Origin: Candidatus Moraniibacteriota bacterium
Lineage (GTDB): Bacteria > Patescibacteriota > Minisyncoccia > Moranbacterales > UBA2206
Reading direction: 5' to 3'
DNA: 41,009 bases
Assembly: GCA_026396205.1 (NCBI GenBank)
Contig: JAPLXF010000066.1
Location: 1 to 41,009, forward strand
A model generated the notes under the pieces. It saw only the letters and a list, made by a program, of their open reading frames with translations. It searched no databases and was not told the DNA's origin. The position numbers and the translations under genes were made by a program. Positions 4,464 through 13,359 of the stretch are shown here, in pieces (positions within the stretch are counted from its first letter, which is position 1; every line of letters starts with the position of its first letter).

Positions 4464-6035
4464 TTAAGATTTTATTATTTCACCGTTTTTGGTTTGATTC
4501 AGAATACCATCTTGAAGCGCTATTTGTCCATTGATAACAACCGCCTTTATTCCTTGGCTGTATTGGTAGGGATTTTCTACCGTGGCCAAGTCCTGAATAT
4601 TTTCCGGATCAATTACCGTGATGTCGGCAAAATATCCTTCTTTGAGCTTCCCGCGCCTCTTAATGCCGAATTTTTCCGCCGGCATTTGGGTCATTTTTTT
4701 TACGGCTTCTTCCCAGCTTAAAATTTTCTTTTCTTTTACATAATAGGAAAGCACCTTGGAAAAAGTTCCGAAACACCGCGGATGGACCATCTCGCCGGTA
4801 TCTTTATGGTTGAGATTGTAACCGGATCCATTGGTGGAAATTATGGCCAGCGGATGCCGGACGGCTTTTTCAATATTTTCTTCGTTCAATATTTCTACGG
4901 AAGTAATCACCCGGCCTTCAGAAGCTACTAAAATGTCAATGATTGCTTCTTCAACGGATTTTTCCTGCGAAACAGCAATTTCCGTTATTCTTTTCCGGCC
5001 CAGCGTCCGATTGAGGTTGGAAATTGCAATATCGATTTTGGAATAATCAAAATCTGATTGTTTCATTTCTTCGATCACTTTCATTTTTATCAAAGGGTTG
5101 CGTAGCCGTCCCAGCATCATTTTCTTGCCGCCGTCGGAAACCCAGCGCGGTAAAAGCGTATAGAGAACTGAACCAATATTGGTGTAGGGGAAAATATCAA
5201 AAGAAATGTCCAGCTCTTTGTTATTGGCTTCGTTTATAAGTTTCAGCGCTTCGTCCATCAGCTTCCAGTATTTTTCTCCGACTGCTTTTAAATGGGAGAT
5301 ATGGATTTTTACGCCGGAAGCTTCGGCTATTTTTATAATCTCCTTCACTGAATTAACTAAATCTTTGCCTTCATCCCGCATATGAGAAACGTAAACACCG
5401 CCATATTCTTTGACCATTTTGGCCAGACTTACTAATTCATCAAAAGTAGCCGAGCGGGCGTGGACATAAACCAAACCGGTAGAAAGACCCAGCCCGCCTT
5501 CTTTGAGGGCTTTTTTCAACCGGCCTTCAATAAATTCCAATTCCTCTTTTTTCAGTTCGCGCATTTTATCTTTAAGCAGGCCTCGGCGCAGCGTTCCGTG
5601 TCCGACCAACGTTCCGAAATTAACCGCCAGTTTTTTTCTTTCCAGAGTTTTAAGAAATTCATCCATCGTCAGCCAATTGAAATTAATCCGGTTGAGATCC
5701 ATCCATTTTTGGATGGACTCCATAGTTTTGGCGTCAGTTAGGGGCGCCAAAGAAGAGCCGCAATTGCCGCCGATGATTGTCGTTATGCCTTGATATAAAA
5801 GGCTTTCCAAATTGGGATTTAAAAATATCTGCCAAAAAGCGTCGCTGTGGTTGTTGACATCCACAAAGCCCGGGCAAATATATTTGCCCGTGGCATCTAT
5901 TTCAATCTCGCCTTTTTCATTCTGCAATTTTCCAATTTTAGAAATCTTTTCTTCATCAATTCCTACATCCGCCAAAAACATCGGTTTCCCCGTGCCATCA
6001 ATAACTGTGCCATTTTTGATTAGAATATCAAACAT
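4464..6035 (-). CDS. Amidohydrolase, D-aminoacylase-like
   Basis: MFDILIKNGTVIDGTG...PGFVDVNNHSD metal-binding N-terminus typical of the N-acyl-D-amino-acid deacylase/amidohydrolase-3 family; ATG at 6035 preferred over upstream TTG at 6068. Confidence 0.7.
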   Translation of the reverse strand: MFDILIKNGTVIDGTGKPMFLADVGIDEEKISKIGKLQNEKGEIEIDATGKYICPGFVDVNNHSDAFWQIFLNPNLESLLYQGITTIIGGNCGSSLAPLTDAKTMESIQKWMDLNRINFNWLTMDEFLKTLERKKLAVNFGTLVGHGTLRRGLLKDKMRELKKEELEFIEGRLKKALKEGGLGLSTGLVYVHARSATFDELVSLAKMVKEYGGVYVSHMRDEGKDLVNSVKEIIKIAEASGVKIHISHLKAVGEKYWKLMDEALKLINEANNKELDISFDIFPYTNIGSVLYTLLPRWVSDGGKKMMLGRLRNPLIKMKVIEEMKQSDFDYSKIDIAISNLNRTLGRKRITEIAVSQEKSVEEAIIDILVASEGRVITSVEILNEENIEKAVRHPLAIISTNGSGYNLNHKDTGEMVHPRCFGTFSKVLSYYVKEKKILSWEEAVKKMTQMPAEKFGIKRRGKLKEGYFADITVIDPENIQDLATVENPYQYSQGIKAVVINGQIALQDGILNQTKNGEIIKS

Positions 6036-6173
6036 AAAAAAATTCAAAATGCAAAGTTCAAAAATCAAAACTACAATTCAAAATTAAAAATTAATTAATT
6101 GTAAATTGTTTAGAAATTAAAAATTAGAAATTAAAAATTGAATACTTCTGATTTTGCGATTCAGAAAAAGCTT

Positions 6174-7160
6174 TTATTTACTAATGAACTGCGACATCTC
6201 TACCAGTCTATTGGCGTATCCCCATTCATTGTCATACCAGCCGACAACTTTGGCCAGATTGCCATTGGCCATGGTTAAAGATAAATCGACAATCGCTGAA
6301 TGCGAATCGCCTTTAAAATCCATAGAAACCAATTGCTCATCCGTAACGGCTAAAATTCCCTGCATACTATTCTTAGAGGCTTCTATAAAGGCTTCGTTTA
6401 TTTCTTCGGCGCTGGCTTCTTTTTTAAGCGTGCAGATGAAATCCACGATGGAAACTACCGGCGTTGGAACACGCAGAGATATGCCGTCTAATTTTCCTTC
6501 CAAATGTTTCAAAACTTTACCGACCGTTTTAGCTGCACCGGTAGTGGTTGGAATTATATTTAACGCTGCTGCTCTGGCCCGCCTTAAATCTTTATGCGGC
6601 AGATCCAAAACTCTTTGGTCATTGGTATAGGAATGCGTGGTCGTCATAAAGCCTTTTTCCACGCCGAATTTGTCGTCCAGAACTTTTATCATCGGCGCCA
6701 GGCAGTTGGTGGTGCAGGAAGCGTTGGAAATAATCGCTTCGCCTTTGTATTCTTTTTCATTGACGCCCAGAAGATAAACCGGCATATCGTCCTTGGCGGG
6801 CGCTGAAATTACCACTTTTTTGGCGCCGGCAGCAATATGCGCCTGATTTTTTTCCGTATTCTCAAAAACGCCCGTACATTCCAAAACTACATCCACACCT
6901 AAATCTCCCCATGGTAATTTTGTTGGATCCGCTTCGCTCAAATATTTTATCTTTTTCCCGTCAATTGTTATTTCCGACGTAGCTTCGTCAATGGAAACTT
7001 CTTTGCCATATCGGCCATAAGAAGAATCATATTTTAATAAATGCGCCGCGGTTTTAAGGTCCGTTAAATCATTGATAGCGACGACTTCCAAACCTTTCTC
7101 CATGGCGATTTTCAGCGCCGGCCGTCCAATGCGGCCAAAACCATTGATAGCTAACTTCAT
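6174..7160 (-). CDS. gap: Glyceraldehyde-3-phosphate dehydrogenase, type I
   Basis: 328-aa ORF, NGFGRIGR NAD-binding motif and active-site SNASCTTNCLAP. Confidence 0.95.
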   Translation of the reverse strand: MKLAINGFGRIGRPALKIAMEKGLEVVAINDLTDLKTAAHLLKYDSSYGRYGKEVSIDEATSEITIDGKKIKYLSEADPTKLPWGDLGVDVVLECTGVFENTEKNQAHIAAGAKKVVISAPAKDDMPVYLLGVNEKEYKGEAIISNASCTTNCLAPMIKVLDDKFGVEKGFMTTTHSYTNDQRVLDLPHKDLRRARAAALNIIPTTTGAAKTVGKVLKHLEGKLDGISLRVPTPVVSIVDFICTLKKEASAEEINEAFIEASKNSMQGILAVTDEQLVSMDFKGDSHSAIVDLSLTMANGNLAKVVGWYDNEWGYANRLVEMSQFISK

Positions 7161-7206: not shown

Positions 7207-7848
7207 TTATTCCAAAAGTAATTTTTCCATTTCTTTCTTTTTCCTCATTTCTTCTGCATTTATTTTAGCATACTTTTTATATTCTTCTAAGTCCTTAAAT
7301 TGGCCTAAAATAATTTCTTTGTTGCACAATACTCTGTTTCTTTTGCCGATATAATCAGGAAAACTGCACCATTTATAATCCGATGCTTTAGCAATTTTAT
7401 GTATTTCACTGTTAAGATTCACATAAGCCGAAAGGTATAACAGATATTCATTGGAATTTATATGTATAGACTTATATCTGCCTTGAAATAATGCACCCGA
7501 TCGCTCATTTTTTTGATTAAAATAATTGGTATATCCCGTACTTAATTTGTGCATGAATTTTTCTATTCCATTGTCGGTGAGTTGTTGCAAAATAAAATGG
7601 TAGTGATTTGGATTAAGACAATAACAAACAACATTAACCAATTTTTCAGGCTCATCGGAGCTCAACTCCGATTCGGAGTTGAGCTCCGATGCTCTTAATC
7701 TTTCTTCTCTAGTTAAATTATTGTTAAATTCTTTTATGTCTTTAAGAAATCTGAAATAATAATTTCCGTCCAAAAATATCTCGCGCTTATCTACGCCGCG
7801 ATTATAAATATGGTAATATTCTCCGTTGGCAAGCTCAGTTTTACGCAC
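7207..7848 (-). CDS. REP-associated tyrosine transposase-like (IS200/Y1 HUH family)
   Basis: GEYYHIYNRG N-terminus, HUH motif NHYHFIL, catalytic-Tyr region LYLSAYVNLN; GTG start overlapping the upstream ORF by 8 nt. Confidence 0.75.
   Translation of the reverse strand: MRKTELANGEYYHIYNRGVDKREIFLDGNYYFRFLKDIKEFNNNLTREERLRASELNSESELSSDEPEKLVNVVCYCLNPNHYHFILQQLTDNGIEKFMHKLSTGYTNYFNQKNERSGALFQGRYKSIHINSNEYLLYLSAYVNLNSEIHKIAKASDYKWCSFPDYIGKRNRVLCNKEIILGQFKDLEEYKKYAKINAEEMRKKKEMEKLLLE
7653..7691. repeat. REP doublet (REPIN-like 39-nt palindrome) inside the RAYT coding sequence
   Basis: CATCGGAGCTCAACTCCGA-T-TCGGAGTTGAGCTCCGATG; two inverted copies of the 7174-7193 unit, 13 codons, in frame (encodes SELNSESELSSDE). 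Confidence 0.85.
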
Positions 7849-8098
7849 TTATTTTATTTATTCTCCAATTGTTTCCAGAAACCTTTTTAATCCTAAATTC
7901 AGCCTTTTCCAAAGCCGTATTTTTGGCAATATTTTTGAGTCCAAACTCCAAATTTTCCAGATTTATATCTTCCGTATGATCAGTATGAGTAATCATTCCA
8001 ATTTCAATATCTACGCTTTTAACTTTAATTATCCCTTTGTTAAGGGCAATTTTTTTTAACGTTTCAATTATTTCTTTGGCTAGTAAAAAATCGTGCAT
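7841..8098 (-). CDS. hypA: HypA-like hydrogenase nickel-insertion protein, N-terminal domain only (no Zn-finger)
   Basis: Starts MHDFLLAKEII (MHE-type Ni motif), then KVKSVDIEIG; 85 aa with no Cys, so CxxC...CxxC is missing; ATG at 8098 because upstream codons read through type-A copy 3. Confidence 0.5.
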   Translation of the reverse strand: MHDFLLAKEIIETLKKIALNKGIIKVKSVDIEIGMITHTDHTEDINLENLEFGLKNIAKNTALEKAEFRIKKVSGNNWRINKISA

Positions 8099-8268
8099 GC
8101 CAATTTTGTCTGCGAGCGTAGTGAGCAGGAACAAAATTGAGCATCCCGCACCAATTCGCAGTATAAACTTCTTGTTAAATTAAACTTAAGCCGCAGGCGA
8201 CAACGCACACAAAACTATAAACTATAACCAGCCTTTGTTGGAATTTGGTGCTGGGATACTATAATTAT
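8099..8268 (-). repeat. Type-A structured leader element, copy 3 (ends 2 nt before hypA AUG)
   Basis: Near-identical in its conserved blocks to copy 4; closing stem 8143-8157 / 8240-8257, box GCCGCAGGCG, terminal hairpin CAAUUUUGU/ACAAAAUUG. Confidence 0.8.
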
Positions 8269-8287
8269 AACCTAAATATCATTTACT

Positions 8288-9193
8288 TCAAAAAGGCGTT
8301 TTCTTCAAAATATCCGTCTTGATTTTGTTCGTATTCCCATGTTTTAATAGACCAAAAAAATAAGAATTTATTGTTTCCGGCGCAGGATTTTCTCTTATTC
8401 TTTTTATCATTCTTTTCTTTGTTTTTGTTCGCAAAACTCTATGATCAGAAAAGTTTACCCAACCGAGAAAATCTACTCCGGAATTAAGCGTTTTTATATA
8501 AACTTTATCCGGATGCAATTCCAACTTTAATTCGTCTTTTAAGAATTTACTAATTATTTCAATTTGTTTTTCCAGCCAAGTTCTATCTTTGGAAAAAATT
8601 ACGAAATCATCGGCATAACGGATATAATATTTGACTTTTAATTTATGCTTTACGAACTGGTCAAATTTATTCATATAGATATTCACGAAAAGCTGGGAGG
8701 TTAAGTTGCCTAAAGGCAAGCCAATACTGTTAATATCCTTCTCATTTCTAAGGAGAGGGTGGGGTAAGGTAAAACTTTCTATAACATTTTCCAAAAGCCA
8801 AACAATATTTTCATCTGAAATATACTCTTTCAAAATACTAACTAGAACTTTGTGATCTATATTAGCGAAAAATTTTCTAATGTCGCATTTAAGAATCCAG
8901 CAGGTTTTAGTATTGTTTTTGCTGACAATATGGGCAAATTGGCGAAATCTATTAATGGCTTTGTGCGTGCCTTTGTTGTTCCGGCAGGAATACGAATCGG
9001 CAATGAAAATTCTGTCAAAAAATGGGTAAAGTTTCCGGTAAATGGCGTGATGCAACAATCTGTCCCGGACTGTCGCTTTATGAATATCTCTGGGTTTCGG
9101 ATCATTGATTTTAAAGGCTTGATACCCGCCGTGTTTGTAGGTATGATTTAAAAGTTCGCTGTGAAGCAAAAATATGTTATCCATCAGACGCAT
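8288..9193 (-). CDS. DGR reverse transcriptase
   Basis: RT motifs PKPRDIHKA, ILKCDIRKFF, GLPLGNLTSQLFVNIY (DGR-type motif 4), YIRYADDFVIF, GVDFLGW; adjacent TR/VR pair. Confidence 0.9.
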   Translation of the reverse strand: MRLMDNIFLLHSELLNHTYKHGGYQAFKINDPKPRDIHKATVRDRLLHHAIYRKLYPFFDRIFIADSYSCRNNKGTHKAINRFRQFAHIVSKNNTKTCWILKCDIRKFFANIDHKVLVSILKEYISDENIVWLLENVIESFTLPHPLLRNEKDINSIGLPLGNLTSQLFVNIYMNKFDQFVKHKLKVKYYIRYADDFVIFSKDRTWLEKQIEIISKFLKDELKLELHPDKVYIKTLNSGVDFLGWVNFSDHRVLRTKTKKRMIKRIRENPAPETINSYFFGLLKHGNTNKIKTDILKKTPF

Positions 9194-9219
9194 AGAAAAT
9201 TCCTGAACATCTTTTTTGA

Positions 9220-9561
9220 GTAATTTTAAAAGAGAAAGAAGCTTATCAATTTTGGTTAGTTTTACATCGTGATTTTCCCAAAACCGAACGCTACGGATTA
9301 GGCAGAAGAATTGATACTCTTTTTCTGGAAGTTTTGGAATTGAGTTTTACCGCTTCATATCTGCCGCCTGAACCTAAAATAATTCTTCTTGGCAAAGCTA
9401 TATCGCGGCTAGATATTCTCAAATTCTTTGCGCAAATTGCTTGGGAAAACAAATTAATCCACACTGAAAGATACGCCAATCTTTCGCAAAGACTGGAAGA
9501 AATCGGCCGAATGCTTGGAGGCTGGAGAAAGGGACTACAAAAGAAAACTCTCACCCGATAA
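9220..9561 (+). CDS. avd: Avd-like four-helix-bundle protein (23S rRNA IVS protein family), no canonical start codon
   Basis: Open frame from 9220 reads VILKEKEAYQFWLVLHRDFPKTERYGLGRRIDTLFLEVLELSF...LSQRLEEIGRMLGGWRKGL, typical of the four-helix-bundle family that includes DGR Avd; first in-frame ATG/GTG/TTG is TTG at 9334; ATT at 9223. Confidence 0.65.
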   Translation, partial: VILKEKEAYQFWLVLHRDFPKTERYGLGRRIDTLFLEVLELSFTASYLPPEPKIILLGKAISRLDILKFFAQIAWENKLIHTERYANLSQRLEEIGRMLGGWRKGLQKKTLTR

Positions 9562-9575
9562 TGGATGAGAGAAAA

Positions 9576-9701
9576 AAGCAAGTTTCGGAACAACAATCCG
9601 ATGGCGATCCTCGGCACTCCAGACATTGTCGTTCTCGAACCTGTTGACATTGACCTTGAGCTTGTCATCGGAGTTGAAGTTCACGTTGGCAACGAAGAAA
9701 T
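9576..9701 (-). repeat. DGR template repeat (TR)
   Basis: 126 bp matching 10002-10127 at offset 426; at all 10 internal mismatches this copy carries A on the minus strand; intergenic. Confidence 0.9.
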
Positions 9702-9921
9702 GTGCGACAAGCCATCTGCGCCACCATCCATTGAATACTCTCTGGATTGAATCTTATGCGGAACCTAAAAGTTCTCCAGCCTATCGCACCAACTGGCTAT
9801 TTTTTATTTTGAAAAAACGCATCCACTCTTCCGCAAGACATATCCAGCGAAATTCTCAAATGCAGTTTTCAGCAACTTTGATTTGAAGCCGTAGCCGCAA
9901 ATTATTCCGAGCTGCTTTATT

Positions 9922-9949
9922 ATTATACAAAAAAATCCCCTGGATTCAA
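9922..9949 (-). promoter_or_regulatory. Candidate promoter for the TR transcript (TTGAAT-16-TATAAT)
   Basis: Minus strand TTGAAT (9944-9949), 16-nt spacer, TATAAT (9922-9927), overlapping the 3' arm of the post-VR hairpin. Confidence 0.35.
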
Positions 9950-9971
9950 AGTATCAAAGAATCCAAGGGAT
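9929..9971 (-). terminator. Hairpin plus U-run 28 nt downstream of VR (target-gene terminator and/or DGR homing hairpin)
   Basis: 13-bp stem ATCCCTTGGATTC / GAATCCAGGGGAT (one G-U), 11-nt loop, followed by T7 on the minus strand. Confidence 0.7.
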
Positions 9972-9999
9972 TAAGGTTTAAAGAACAAAGGGGAAAGGG

Positions 10000-10686
10000 T
10001 TAAGCCAGTTGCGGAACAACAAGCCGACGGCGAACCTCGGCACTCCAGACAATGTCGTTCTCGAACCTGTTGACATTGACCTCGAGCTTGTCACCGGAGT
10101 AGAAGTGCACGTAGGCAACGAAGAAATTATCATCTGCGTCCTTCGTTTCATCCTTTTTAAATAAAAAGAATGTCGCATAGCCATCAGTTCTGAGCCATTT
10201 GCTGTGTTTTTTTACAAACTTTTTGATCTGTGATTGCTTTAGGCAAAGTTTTTTTCGCTCTGTTGAAAACGAATTAAACATTTGCCGAAAGGTCGCATCC
10301 TCTGACATTTCAAAAACCTGAACGGGAGTTTTGCCTGTAGCTGATGCTTTTTTATCAAGGCCCCAATTTTTGAAATCAGAATCAATGTAAGCAAAAACAT
10401 CTTTTGCGTCTGCCAGCGTTTCTGTCCCGTCACATTCATCAATAATGATGGTTTCGCTGCCGGAAATGAGTTTGAGAAATTTGTTCTCAGTTTTTTTCAC
10501 TCCCTCGACAATGATGCGAGCAATTTTTTCCAGCGTTTTACTTCCGTCAGGAGTTGCTAAGCGATAGATATTTTCCATTGATCCGCCGAATTTTTTTACA
10601 AGCTCAACGAGATTGGAAATAAACGCCATAAAAACTCCCATACCCGATACGATTGCCTCTACATCTTTCTTGCTTCTCGTGCTCAT
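10000..10686 (-). CDS. DGR target (variable) protein, function unknown
   Basis: 228-aa ORF with VR at its extreme C-terminus; strong SD GAGGAG 7 nt upstream of the ATG. Confidence 0.85.
   Translation of the reverse strand: MSTRSKKDVEAIVSGMGVFMAFISNLVELVKKFGGSMENIYRLATPDGSKTLEKIARIIVEGVKKTENKFLKLISGSETIIIDECDGTETLADAKDVFAYIDSDFKNWGLDKKASATGKTPVQVFEMSEDATFRQMFNSFSTERKKLCLKQSQIKKFVKKHSKWLRTDGYATFFLFKKDETKDADDNFFVAYVHFYSGDKLEVNVNRFENDIVWSAEVRRRLVVPQLA
10002..10127 (-). repeat. DGR variable repeat (VR)
   Basis: Last 41 codons plus stop of ORF 10000-10686; differs from TR only at TR-adenine positions plus one T/G mismatch next to the 3' end. Confidence 0.9.
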
Positions 10687-10772
10687 TTTATCTCTCCTCT
10701 TATTTTGGCTTGTCCCTCGCTTCGACCCAATGCCGAAGTCCCAGACTTGCCGGTTTAAAAGTACAATATATT

Positions 10773-10801
10773 AGCATACACCCAAAAGTGTATTTTGTCA
10801 A
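10773..10801 (-). promoter_or_regulatory. Candidate promoter of DGR target gene (TTGACA-17-TATGCT)
   Basis: Minus strand TTGACA at 10796-10801, 17-nt spacer, TATGCT at 10773-10778. Confidence 0.5.
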
Positions 10802-10848
10802 ACGCAAAAGTCAGTTTTTGGCTTAAATAAAGGTTTATATAGAAAAAA

Positions 10849-12108
10849 TCAGTGCACTGCGCAGGAAATACATGGGTCATACGCCCGAATAAAGGCCCGT
10901 AATTTTTTTTCTTTGATTTTATCGTCCAAATTCATAATGCTGGGAATATAAGCTTTGATGTCATCTTCCAGATTGGCTAAAAATTGGGCAGTGGGCGTGA
11001 TGATGTTTACATTTTTTATATAGCCTTTGCCGTCAACTTCCACATGATAATATAAAGTGCCCCGCGGAGCTTCGACAGCCGCGACACCAATTCCTTCTTT
11101 GATTTCATATTTTTTGCTCAACGCTTGGTTTAAATCCGAGTGCAAAAGTTCTTTGGTGATTTTTACCGACTCTTCGATGCAATGAATGACTTCCACCATC
11201 TGGAAAAGAATATTGTGGAAAGGATTATAGTCCGGAAATTTATAATTCAGGCTTTCCAGATATTTGTGGGCCTCCATATTCAATTTGCCCCGGTTGATAT
11301 TCACCCGCGCAATGGCGCCGACCATATAGCTTTGGCCGTTATGTTCCAGAGTTTTTATCACTTGATTTTGTTTTTGGATTTCCTGGAAATTGGTTTCAAA
11401 TTTTTCCACCGGCAAGATTGTGCTTTTGGAAGAAACAATATCGCAATCATAGACGGCATAGGTTCCGCTTTTGGCCAGGCAGACATATTCCGTTTCCCGG
11501 GAAAATTCGGGAATCTTTATTTTCCGGAAAAATTCTCCCAGTTCCAAGGCGATTTTTAAAACTTCGTCGCTTTTTTCCACAAGATTTTTTAGTTCTTCCG
11601 GCTTCGGCACTTTTTTGAATCCACCGACTTCGTTGGTCAAAGGATGGACGACCCGCCCGCCGATTATTCTGACGATATCCATTCCAAATTCCCGGATCTT
11701 AATGGCTTTTCTGGTTTCTTCTGGATATTCTTTAACCAGCTGAATATCATTGTCCATATCCAAAAAATCGGCCAGTGACAGGAAAAACAAATGCAAGGCG
11801 TGGGAATGGATAATCTGCCCGAATTCCATGAGCGTCCGCAATTTTTCGGTTTCCGGAGTAATTTTGACGCCAAAAGCGTTTTCTACCGCTTTGACTGCCG
11901 TCAGATTATGCACCACCGGGCAAATGCCGCAAATCCGCTGCGCCACTACCGGCATATCGGTATAATATCTGCCAATCAAAACGCCTTCAATCAAGCGTAT
12001 GCCTTCCTGAATCTCCAACTTGGCCGACTTGACATCGCCTTGTAAAACACTGGCCATAAATCCGGCGTGTCCTTCCATTTTCGCGATATGATTGATACGA
12101 ATATTCAT
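10849..12108 (-). CDS. [NiFe]-hydrogenase large (alpha) subunit, group-3-like
   Basis: N-terminal RICGICPVVH and C-terminal DPCISCAVH Ni-Fe ligand motifs; ATG 12108 preferred to GTG 12132, which reads through spacer words. Confidence 0.88.
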   Translation of the reverse strand: MNIRINHIAKMEGHAGFMASVLQGDVKSAKLEIQEGIRLIEGVLIGRYYTDMPVVAQRICGICPVVHNLTAVKAVENAFGVKITPETEKLRTLMEFGQIIHSHALHLFFLSLADFLDMDNDIQLVKEYPEETRKAIKIREFGMDIVRIIGGRVVHPLTNEVGGFKKVPKPEELKNLVEKSDEVLKIALELGEFFRKIKIPEFSRETEYVCLAKSGTYAVYDCDIVSSKSTILPVEKFETNFQEIQKQNQVIKTLEHNGQSYMVGAIARVNINRGKLNMEAHKYLESLNYKFPDYNPFHNILFQMVEVIHCIEESVKITKELLHSDLNQALSKKYEIKEGIGVAAVEAPRGTLYYHVEVDGKGYIKNVNIITPTAQFLANLEDDIKAYIPSIMNLDDKIKEKKLRAFIRAYDPCISCAVH

Positions 12109-12135
12109 ACAAATTAAATCCGAATTATTCACGAA

Positions 12136-12513
12136 TTATTTTTTATTTAGAATCCTTTTTGGCTTTAAAGTTGTTTCAGAAAAATTCACTATTATTCCGA
12201 GTTCTCTATTTGAAGCTTTTAGGTATCTTTTCATCTGAACATAATCTTTTGTGGTAATTTCTTTTTTACATTTTATATCCAGAACTATTTTGTCATCTAT
12301 CAGAAAATCAAGTATATTTCCGGTTAGTTTTATTCCTTCAAACTCTATGGGTATCTCGATCTCTCTTTTATAATTTATTTTTTCTTTTTTTAATATTACT
12401 TCGAATGCATCGCAATATTGCTTATGATTACAAAATCTCCCTAATTTATTATGAATATCAAATAAAATTCCATTTATTTTATAAGAAAACTCTTTATATA
12501 AAATTTCTACCAT
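12136..12513 (-). CDS. GxxExxY protein (PD-(D/E)XK-like small nuclease family)
   Basis: 125-aa ORF with the family layout ...EIPIEFEGIKLTGNILDFLIDDKIVLDIKCKKEIT...YLKASNRELGIIVNF; inserted between hydrogenase subunit genes. Confidence 0.65.
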   Translation of the reverse strand: MVEILYKEFSYKINGILFDIHNKLGRFCNHKQYCDAFEVILKKEKINYKREIEIPIEFEGIKLTGNILDFLIDDKIVLDIKCKKEITTKDYVQMKRYLKASNRELGIIVNFSETTLKPKRILNKK

Positions 12514-12567
12514 AAAAATTCGTATTTAATTCAGATGTAATTCGGATTCAAATTCGTATATTTGGAT

Positions 12568-13359
12568 TTAATTCGGATATAATTTGGATTCCCATTCGGA
12601 TATGTCATCTCGGAGACCGTATATCTCCGAAACATTTTCAAGCTCCTCATCTGTCATCATATTTTTGAGCGCAGCGCGCATGGCTTTGACATTGCCTTTC
12701 GGTCGCAGTCCCCGGCAGCCTTGGCACATCATCCGCGAAGTCGGACAGACGGCATCACAGCCGCCCAAAATCATCGGCCCGAAACAGGGTTTTTTATCCA
12801 AAAGCAAACAGCGGTTTCCGCGCGCTTTGCATTCTACACAAACCGGCTGGTCAGGTATTACCGGTATTTTACCCTCAAGTAGTTCCGGCATATATTTTAA
12901 AAATTCTTCGGCATTGATAGGACAGCCGGGAAAAGTAAAATCCACTTTGACGAAATTATCCACTTCTTTGATTTCCGTATTTTTGATTCCCTGGACATAT
13001 TTATAGACATGCTTGATGGTGTTCATACCTTCCTGATAATTTTTGATTTCCGGAATGCCGCCCATGGCCGCGCAATTTCCCAAAACCGCTAAAATCTTAC
13101 TTCTTTCCCTCAGTTTTTTTAAAGTTTCAATATTTTCATCCGTCATCGGATTGCCCTCTACAATTCCAATGTCAATTTTTTCGCCTTTATCTTCTTCATC
13201 TTCCAGAAGCCGGAAATCTACCATTTCAATTTGCGAAACGAAATCCAAAAAACATTCGCCCAAGTCCAAAAGCGCGAACTGGCAGCCTTCGCAGGAAGTC
13301 AAGGAAACTATGGCTATCTTGGGCTTTTTCTTAAAAAAATCTTTAAAATGCTCCAGCAT
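12568..13359 (-). CDS. [NiFe]-hydrogenase small (delta) subunit, group-3-like
   Basis: KIAIVSLTSCEGCQ proximal cluster motif, GNCAAMGG, C-terminal Cys-rich FeS segment CVECKARGNRC...CFGP...GGCDAVCP...CQGC. Confidence 0.85.
   Translation of the reverse strand: MLEHFKDFFKKKPKIAIVSLTSCEGCQFALLDLGECFLDFVSQIEMVDFRLLEDEEDKGEKIDIGIVEGNPMTDENIETLKKLRERSKILAVLGNCAAMGGIPEIKNYQEGMNTIKHVYKYVQGIKNTEIKEVDNFVKVDFTFPGCPINAEEFLKYMPELLEGKIPVIPDQPVCVECKARGNRCLLLDKKPCFGPMILGGCDAVCPTSRMMCQGCRGLRPKGNVKAMRAALKNMMTDEELENVSEIYGLRDDISEWESKLYPN

Follow-up and report, generated by a model that had tools for sequence, protein, structure and literature searches.

The locus studied here raises the question of whether a diversity-generating retroelement (DGR) of a Candidatus Moraniibacteriota bacterium acts on a target of the ordinary kind or on a cytoplasmic protein with a variable region that is not of the C-type lectin (CLec) type. 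The window, that is, the whole stretch of 41,009 nucleotides analysed (contig JAPLXF010000066.1 of assembly GCA_026396205.1), had been described in an earlier, sequence-only reading as carrying the DGR target in a 228-amino acid (aa) open reading frame (ORF) at 10000-10686. This ORF was confirmed on the minus strand, with its stop codon at 10000-10002, and the protein, which begins with MSTRSKKDVEAIVSG, is 100% identical to MCX6763789.1, a hypothetical protein from a Candidatus Moranbacteria metagenome-assembled genome (MAG). The element is probably a canonical Patescibacteria-type DGR that diversifies the C-terminus of a two-module target, which belongs to a large family catalogued as 'misc' and homologous to the target class UVR6. 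The DGR is working-looking and ordinary in its mechanism, and its target is a further member of a catalogued, structurally unassigned class from the candidate phyla radiation (CPR).

Adenine-specific variation and the parts of the retroelement

The target gene ends with a variable repeat (VR) of 126 nt (10002-10127, minus strand; residues 188-228), which reaches the stop codon, shows A-to-N substitutions between 10023 and 10113 and is 91% identical to a template repeat (TR) of 126 nt located at 9576-9701 on the minus strand. The TR contains 32 adenines and encodes FFVANVNFNSDDKLKVNVNRFENDNVWSAEDRHRIVVPKLA; read in the frame of the VR, seven of its codons are AAY. The comparison of both repeats on the coding strand has revealed 11 differences, ten of them at TR adenines (4 to T, 3 to C and 3 to G) together with one T>G change. 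The probability that at least 10 of the 11 mismatches fall by chance on the 32 TR adenines is 3e-6, which confirms the repeat pair noticed in the sequence-only reading. The bias of the mismatches toward adenines was also found in 25 related loci, where 426 of the 652 VR/TR mismatches were located at A, a figure in which the unaligned flanks are counted. The TRs of the related cassettes encode a conserved Asn-rich peptide, FFVANVNxNSDGxLNVNVNRFENDNVWNAENRHRxVVPKL. No second VR for this TR was found within the window.

The 3' end of the VR carries a sequence similar to an initiation of mutagenic homing (IMH) site, CCGCAACTGG (10005-10014, minus strand), which differs at two positions from the TR, where the corresponding IMH* is CCGAAACTTG (9579-9588, minus strand). 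A VR end with CCGCAACTGG against CCGAAACT(T) / CCGAAACTTG in the TR was present in most of the 25 related cassettes inspected, and the T>G change, like the A>C change that turns K into Q at codon 226, was a recurrent VR-versus-TR difference in most of these loci. These two changes therefore make up the constant IMH/IMH* asymmetry from which homing takes its direction, and are not the outcome of random mutagenesis. This assignment explains both the conserved Q in the VR against K in the TR at residue 226 and the sole mismatch outside adenines, and it leaves nine mutagenic substitutions in the window VR. The earlier count of 10 differences among about 32 TR adenines is correct as a count (10 of 32), with one of them belonging to the IMH/IMH* pair. 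The central NVNRFEND block, unchanged between VR and TR, had also been considered noteworthy. It corresponds to a run of 11 unmutated adenines whose length is not unusual (P = 0.06 by shuffling), and its positions are hypervariable in relatives, so that the block was rejected as a special feature.

The order of the cassette over 8288-10686 is target, TR, avd on the opposite strand and reverse transcriptase (RT). The RT gene (8288-9193, minus strand) encodes 301 aa with the motifs LGNLTSQ (aa 161-167) and YADD (aa 193-196), and its product matches RVT_1 at 2.3e-25. The motif [I/L]GxxxSQ marks the RTs of DGRs. The bAvd accessory gene is located at 9220-9561 on the plus strand, opposite to target, TR and RT, and matches PF22296 at 4e-12, above the cut-off, and NF033474 with 63.9 bits, below the cut-off of 80 (E 1.4e-17). 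The same arrangement (target, about 300 nt, TR, reversed avd and RT) was found in about 25 of the 68 genome loci with relatives of the target, and the RTs of these related cassettes are 57-74% identical to that of the window.

Two hairpins accompany the repeats. Downstream of the VR, after the stop codon of the target gene, a hairpin followed by a T-run (AATCCCTTGGATTC ... GAATCCAGGGGATT) is present at 9934-9972 (minus strand), and sequences resembling its 5' arm, such as TCCCTTGGACTC and TCCCTTAGATTC, were seen by eye downstream of the VRs in several related loci; this hairpin is probably both a terminator and the stem-loop used for target recognition. The second one, a 9-bp hairpin followed by a U-run (9548-9571, minus strand), starts 4 nt 3' of the TR end. 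When each cassette was folded alone, a hairpin of 7-10 bp followed by UUUU was found within about 10 nt 3' of the TR in 25 of 25 cassettes. Its stem varies between loci with the pairing maintained (CUCUCAUCC/GGGUGAGAG, CCUCCCG/CGGGAGG, CUCCCGC/GCGGGAG and CUCCUGC/GCAGGAG). RNAalifold, applied to the TR-3' region as aligned with MAFFT, yielded just five outer pairs, because the loops vary in length. The TR RNA may be a discrete short transcript that ends before it would enter avd in antisense, or else the hairpin may belong to a priming structure.

A promoter-like TTGAAT-16-TATAAT upstream of the TR (9922-9949, minus strand) is a candidate promoter for the TR RNA. For the target gene, the promoter-like TTGACA-17-TATGCT (10773-10801, minus strand) and the Shine-Dalgarno sequence GAGGAG (10694-10699, minus strand, 7 nt before the ATG) were found where the sequence-only reading had placed them, in a promoter scan that overall yielded 8 sites against 6.3 expected and was therefore not above chance.

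A related locus, L068, shows a different state of the template. Its TR (6861-6977; target at 6001-6543) contains only 11 adenines and is nearly identical to its own diversified VR, with 8 differences. This TR looks like a template that was overwritten by, or has decayed toward, VR-like sequence, as in a burnt-out DGR.

The target family and its relation to catalogued targets

The target protein gave no match in Pfam, NCBIfam, PHROG or PADLOC. It is composed of an N-terminal helical module (residues 1-65; 10492-10686, minus strand), with predicted helices at 6-32, 37-44 and 46-63, and of a conserved alpha/beta core domain (residues 66-228; 10003-10491, minus strand). A word-indexed search has retrieved 373 relatives, nearly all of about 220 aa and none with a Pfam domain, whose named sources are all Patescibacteria/CPR. 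An exhaustive profile search among 1.84 billion representatives has extended the family to 2,622 clusters at 50% identity with E <= 1e-3 (2,003 with E <= 1e-10), and in this analysis the family was encountered only on Patescibacteria-type contigs.

The C-terminal consensus of the family is FFVAxVxxxSxGxLxVxVxRFExxxVWxAExRxRxVVPQLA, in which conserved scaffold residues are interleaved with variable ones. Column entropies in the VR are bimodal, with 2.57 bits where an adenine occupies the first or second place of the TR codon and 0.56 bits elsewhere (Mann-Whitney p = 7e-8). Hypervariability was also observed within a population: among the 15 members aligned from the 90%-identity cluster of the relative P0017, residues 1-179 are essentially invariant and the VR positions differ. 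This pattern has the appearance, in the sequences, of a signature of current DGR activity in natural populations, partial VR replacement included. The VR alleles of this cluster were seen to be mosaics in which several members share the 5' part (VVLFDSRGGLFVR) and the 3' part differs, and these mosaics fit partial replacement of the VR from the IMH end.

Tandem versions of the core were also observed. Five relatives (P0121, P0122, P0125, P0131 and P0216) contain two or three 160-aa domains in one polypeptide, each ending in its own VR-like tail (...VVPQL or VVYPKL), so that some VR-like segments are internal.

The family is represented among catalogued DGR targets. In Supplementary Data 8 of Roux et al. 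(2021), the entry REF_DGR t343 (LBQD01000003.1, Candidatus Moranbacteria GW2011_GWE2_35_2-) is labelled 'misc' and has the same sequence as the relative P0036; the family hidden Markov model (HMM) scores it at 343.7 bits. P0036 is 60% identical to the window protein over the full length, with the same N-terminal module, the same cassette order and a common VR framework, FFVAxVxxxS..LxVxVxR.E...VW.AE.R.R.V.PQL. Both differ in their genomic site, which is thrS/dnaE for t343 and a hydrogenase cluster in the window, and in a 6-residue insertion (KDETKD) that the window protein carries before the VR strand. The reference set in question was built by Wu et al. (2018) and reused by Roux et al. (2021); according to Wu et al. 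(2018), 45 CPR VRs were left ungrouped, six classes named UVR were of unknown fold, and a CPR-typical cassette architecture called B3 was present in 90% of the CPR set.

The core is also related to targets of the UVR6/misc class (t339, t342, t348, t352, t353, t356, t363 and t364), with an hhalign value of 96.1% (E 3.2e-9, 159 columns) and of 86.5% in a separate local run with the domain only. Both groups share an xDGYAxxF strand, the hairpin that follows it and a conserved Trp, and the UVR6/misc targets are likewise two-module proteins of about 200 aa with a C-terminal VR; no fold has been assigned to either. They differ in the VR framework, which is rich in Trp and Gly in the UVR6/misc targets (...LWAVxxxWxxxGGWxVxAxSVxxPxxWxxGxxVFSR), whereas in the window family it is framed by Val, Phe and Arg in alternation. 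The relation to UVR1 was taken as unproven (hhalign 27.6%, and 61.6% in the local domain-only run).

With the UVR2 targets it is the N-terminal module that is shared, and the VR domain is unrelated. The family HMM gives 44.6 bits to t351 over HMM positions 2-63, and hhalign gives 97.7%. When only the N-terminal 67 aa were used as query, the word-indexed search, within the limit of its index, retrieved a single fragment. Other N-terminal types were seen by eye to be common across classes, that of P0113 with t342 and that of locus L059 with t333/t357. Modules of about 60 aa (window protein, P0113 and L059 compared with t351/t346/t347, t342 and t333/t357) are thus shared between the misc, UVR1, UVR2 and UVR6 classes. 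As N-terminal modules are common to different VR classes, domain shuffling would have taken place between adaptor and binder modules, and on these sequence comparisons CPR DGR targets seem to combine a binder that bears the VR with a small adaptor at the N-terminus. This picture fits the modularity of DGR targets proposed by Roux et al. (2021). What appears to be new here is the homology of the core to the UVR6/misc class, the N-terminal module in common with UVR2 targets, the very large size of the family behind the 'misc' type and the tandem versions.

Fold of the variable domain and localisation of the target

AlphaFold2 models were built from a 120-sequence alignment. The model of the full protein (predicted local distance difference test, pLDDT, 88.5) consists of three N-terminal helices, a low-confidence linker and the alpha/beta domain, and the core modelled alone (residues 66-228, 163 aa) reaches a pLDDT of 94.8 and a predicted TM-score (pTM) of 0.91. 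In full-length numbering, the strands of the core are two short ones (71-73 and 80-82) and then 120-127, 172-177, 188-196, 200-207 and 221-225, and its helices are 133-138, 144-147 and 151-160. The variable positions are 192, 194 and 196 in one strand, 200, 202, 204 and 206 in the next one, 198 in addition, 210-212, 215 and 218 in the following loop, and 220 and 222 leading into the last strand. Between these positions, in alternation, are conserved hydrophobic residues of the scaffold. From this secondary structure and alternation pattern we infer that one face of the beta-hairpin or small sheet, together with the loop, would be the diversified ligand-binding surface.

Foldseek searches of the PDB (350,542 chains), with the full and the core model, and of BFVD gave no significant neighbour. 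For each PDB search 50 matches were listed, out of 161 and 204 with E <= 10. The best PDB match of the core model was the C-type-lectin-like domain (CTLD) of BDCA2 (3wbr_G), aligned over 128 columns on a 127-residue chain (TMq 0.37, TMt 0.45, E 0.41, probability 0.35). The full model aligned with the CTLD of CLEC9A (3vpp_B) over 124 columns (TMt 0.41), and the core model with intimin, which carries a lectin-like domain, over 147 columns (TM 0.27). The other matches listed were mostly short fragments, often of about 50 residues, or long alignments with very high root-mean-square deviation (rmsd). On these models, no known fold, C-type lectin included, can be confidently assigned to the variable domain.

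Two explanations of the core have to be weighed at this point. The first one, which is a serious candidate though it falls somewhat short of probable, is a highly divergent and compact CTLD without the long-loop region, so that the target would be a standard CLec DGR target that has drifted beyond detection by profiles. The order of elements predicted from residue 120 onwards is beta-alpha-alpha-beta-beta-beta-beta. In a compact CTLD without the long-loop region the order is beta1-alpha1-alpha2-beta2-beta3-beta4-beta5, which is the same, and CTLDs use beta3-beta4 and the following loop for ligand binding, which is where the variable residues of the window protein map. Among the matches listed, moreover, the only near-full-length structural alignments were those with the CTLDs of BDCA2 and CLEC9A, and intimin was aligned over 147 columns. 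Roux et al. (2021) reported that annotated VRs are systematically C-Lec and predicted that the uncharacterised ones, mostly from CPR and archaea, are probably new C-Lec variants.

However, every TM-score was below 0.5, every E-value was at least 0.4 and the rmsd was about 7 A. The CLec VR framework is of a loop type rich in Gly, Trp and Asn, and the VR of the window protein lacks the GGSW...GFR framework, as the sequence-only reading had stated. FGE-sulfatase, DUF1566 and Lectin_C were never matched in a Pfam scan of the 120 aligned members at E <= 1. The family gave 0.1% by hhalign with a target of the archaeal 'Clec' class, and the sequence and profile searches of the PDB, carried out with the family, UVR6, UVR1 and UVR2 alignments and with the archaeal 'Clec' target, yielded no meaningful match. 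Structure prediction and comparison, which the earlier reading had proposed, have thus provided no confident CLec match; at the same time CTLDs are the best neighbours (E 0.41, TM below 0.5) with a compatible order of elements, and this keeps the lectin fold in consideration.

The comparison with the DGR targets of solved or well-known type points both ways. Like Mtd (Bordetella phage), TvpA (Treponema), AvpA (archaeal) and TaqVP (Thermus), the window protein has a C-terminal VR, variable residues templated by AAY amid a scaffold, a 3' IMH and an alpha/beta domain with helices ahead of the C-terminal strands, and CTLDs are the best, non-significant neighbours of its model. In contrast, it has no sequence or profile relationship to these proteins, and Mtd, TvpA, AvpA, TaqVP and FGE were all absent among the 50 matches listed for each PDB search. 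It also differs from the first four in the lack of a GGSW/GFR framework, in a very short beta2-beta3 loop and in the lack of a signal peptide, lipobox or phage-tail context.

The second explanation, which seems possible but rather doubtful, is a fold outside the CLec type that was recruited independently as a display platform for a DGR, with variability on an exposed face of the beta-hairpin or small sheet. It is consistent with a model of pTM 0.91 that has no significant neighbour in 350,542 PDB chains or in BFVD, with the absence of any sequence or profile tie to a CLec family, and with a strict i, i+2 pattern in which variable residues alternate with conserved ones along two successive strands, a pattern unlike the loop-type framework of CLec domains. 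The only recurrent weak Pfam match, POTRA_2, was found in 24 of the 120 members, always below threshold (best E 0.0023). It maps to the beta-alpha-alpha part (about residues 105-155 of P0090) and suggests a beta-alpha-alpha-beta-beta unit and not a lectin. On the other hand, CTLDs are still the best global structural matches, Foldseek, run here on the PDB and BFVD, can miss distant fold similarity, and earlier claims of 'Ig-like' DGR VRs were later withdrawn (Roux et al., 2021). What remains beyond these two explanations is left to an error of the model or to another known fold.

Concerning localisation, inspection of the N-terminal sequence showed neither a signal peptide (h-region/AXA site) nor an L-x-x-C lipobox, and the only Cys residues of the protein are at 85 and 148. 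The sequence-only reading was right on this point, and the window protein is in this respect different from a secreted or anchored target such as the Legionella lipoprotein LdtA. The same reading had found that the target looks cytoplasmic, without a clear transmembrane (TM) anchor, which is an overstatement, because the helix formed by residues 11-30 (AIVSGMGVFMAFISNLVELV), hydrophobic and conserved, has borderline values on three scales: the Kyte-Doolittle (KD) 19-residue mean is 1.85 (classical threshold 1.6), the Wimley-White octanol sum is -3.1 kcal/mol and the unweighted Hessa sum is +3.6 kcal/mol. The target is probably soluble and cytoplasmic, and an association with the membrane through the N-terminal helix is considerably less likely.

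The alternative in its full form is that this helix is an uncleaved signal-anchor and that the variable domain is displayed on the outer side of the cell, in the manner of classical DGR adhesins. The KD and Wimley-White values agree with it, as do the basic N-terminus MSTRSKK and the distribution among 119 close homologs, 65 of which reach a KD of 1.6 and 31 a KD of 2.0; a Hessa sum of +1 or lower was found in 6, with sums of 0 or lower in some (P0021 and P0109), and some homologs would be plausible membrane anchors by their scores. On the UVR2 target t351 this module looks, by eye, even more hydrophobic (AIVSALGVLMSIITALVFAV). Nevertheless, the Hessa sum of the window protein argues against insertion, the hydrophobic run has just 17 residues between E10 and E28 and includes N25, one face of the helix is polar or small (E10, S14, G17, A21, S24/N25, E28 and K31/K32; hydrophobic moment 1.43), and a conserved KK after the helix makes both flanks basic. 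Homologous N-termini of relatives are clearly non-TM, for instance SGAGGSGSFAGALVNEL, and the other N-terminal types of the family are soluble, with a maximum KD below 1.3. AlphaFold2 places the helix as the first of three in a confidently modelled N-terminal segment (block pLDDT 72-91), and Roux et al. (2021) found CPR clade-2 targets typically without a recognisable TM segment or conserved domain, adding that their genuine non-membrane status 'remains to be established'. Surface display is therefore regarded as unlikely.

Intracellular targets have precedents, among which the regulatory DGR targets of cyanobacteria, reportedly described by Vallota-Eastman et al. in 2020, may be counted. In Thiohalocapsa PB-PSB1 several DGR targets are predicted to be cytoplasmic (Dore et al., 2024), as intracellular binding or sensor proteins. 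The Thiohalocapsa and cyanobacterial targets are large proteins of several domains (STAND NTPase and similar) in which CLec domains can be recognised, whereas the window protein, of about 220 aa, has only the 65-aa helical module and no effector domain. The earlier opinion that an intracellular DGR target would be unusual does not hold, given the catalogued 'misc' homolog t343, the CPR targets without TM or CLec domain (Roux et al., 2021) and the cytoplasmic targets predicted elsewhere (Dore et al., 2024).

State of this copy, genomic setting and meaning of the family

According to the explanation favoured here, that of a canonical DGR with a two-module target, the TR would be transcribed as a short RNA from the promoter-like site at 9949-9922 and would end at the 9548-9571 hairpin before an antisense run into avd. 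RT and Avd would copy this RNA with misincorporation at adenines, and the cDNA would replace the VR, that is, the last 38 codons or so of the target gene, from the IMH inwards and sometimes partly. In the protein, the N-terminal module of about 65 aa, exchangeable between CPR target classes, may have an adaptor, oligomerisation or anchoring role, and the alpha/beta module of about 160 aa would carry the variable residues on its C-terminal beta-hairpin (188-196 and 200-207), loop and last strand, so that protein variants could present different binding faces.

Several points weigh against this explanation or parts of it. The avd ORF has no ATG, GTG or TTG before codon 39 and has a TGA directly upstream of the conserved start region VI-KEKEAYQ. 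The window copy is represented by one sequence only, which bears on the activity of this particular copy. About 40 of the 68 loci (about 60%; L003, L005, L013, L016, L017 and about 35 others) have no RT, Avd or TR within 6 kb. The hydrophobicity scales disagree about the N-terminal helix, the geometry of the proposed face comes from secondary structure and the alternation pattern and is limited to that extent, and the putative binding function and its ligand are purely inferred.

The first of these points, together with others, could indicate a decayed cassette, in which the VR would be the frozen product of past homing. Nine of about 30 templating adenines are substituted in the window, against 13-21 in most relatives, inactivation is common among the DGRs of genomes according to a caution by Wu et al. 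(2018), and about 60% of the family loci lack a nearby RT. However, around one third of the 24 relatives with intact cassettes (for example L001, L037, L041, L009, L031, L050, L039 and L014) also lack a canonical avd start ahead of the conserved start region, the RT has its full length and its catalytic motifs, the TR has kept 32 adenines, and the IMH and both hairpins are intact. Since part of the relatives with intact cassettes share the feature, the sequences suggest that avd may use a non-canonical start, perhaps a conserved ATY codon, which we consider as likely as decay of this gene. Decay of the cassette as a whole appears improbable. In the avd upstream regions of the loci L001-L068 (window 9190-9340, plus strand), the relatives without a canonical start have in common a conserved Pro-Pro-Pro located around 8 codons upstream and, at position 2, a conserved ATY codon, which may reflect a non-canonical start or some feature of another, unrecognised kind.

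The loci without RT are of interest in themselves. As RT, Avd and TR are all missing within 6 kb of about 60% of the loci, the link of the family to a DGR in cis is not obligatory, which answers the question, raised with the sequence-only reading, of whether homologs are always DGR-linked; about 25 of 68 carry the same cassette. The C-terminal tails encoded at RT-less loci still look diversified, and some of these loci keep TR-like stretches (e.g. L005, ...VWNAENRHRLVVPKLA). Several MAGs carry two or three RT-less copies (L030/L051 and L044/L064). The remote orphan copy L022 was compared with the TR of the same MAG (L036), and templating by this TR was not convincing, with about 19 mismatches at non-A positions beside 20 at A.

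The target gene is located between the gene for the large subunit of a NiFe-hydrogenase (10849-12132) and the RT gene, with hypA (7841-8134) beyond, so that its position inside a hydrogenase cluster had been correctly noticed. A PD-(D/E)XK gene (12136-12513) lies between the small- and large-subunit genes of the hydrogenase (window 7207-13359), and hypA is bordered by an IS200-like Y1 transposase gene (7207-7848). L005/L006, both with protein P0113, represent the only other organism with a hydrogenase setting in a set of about 70 related loci. In L005 (3203-8337; large subunit 79% identical), a solo family member and M10 peptidase and PaaX-like genes are found between the two subunit genes, with junctions different from those of the window. 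The hydrogenase operon looks like a repeated insertion site. Elsewhere the neighbourhoods are diverse, with thrS/dnaE, RNase HII or efflux genes. As the hydrogenase setting recurs in L005/L006 only, a link in function between hydrogenase and target was rejected; the location is thus incidental, an insertion site that is uninformative on function. A phage origin was rejected on present evidence, with housekeeping neighbours and no relatives of the family in IMG/VR viral contigs, and the element is cellular rather than phage.

What the sequence-only reading had considered unusual is therefore a documented open problem and not a new phenomenon. It is rather unlikely, taken as a whole, that the core is genuinely non-CLec and would represent a further natural DGR scaffold with variability on a beta-hairpin face, spread over thousands of Patescibacteria lineages in small, signal-less proteins with interchangeable N-terminal modules for different cellular partners. 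If true, ultra-small bacteria would possess a recognition repertoire that is intracellular and comparable to antibodies. The findings would come as no surprise to a specialist; still, the family offers a good and compact case on which to test the standing question of whether the C-type lectin fold underlies every DGR variable region.

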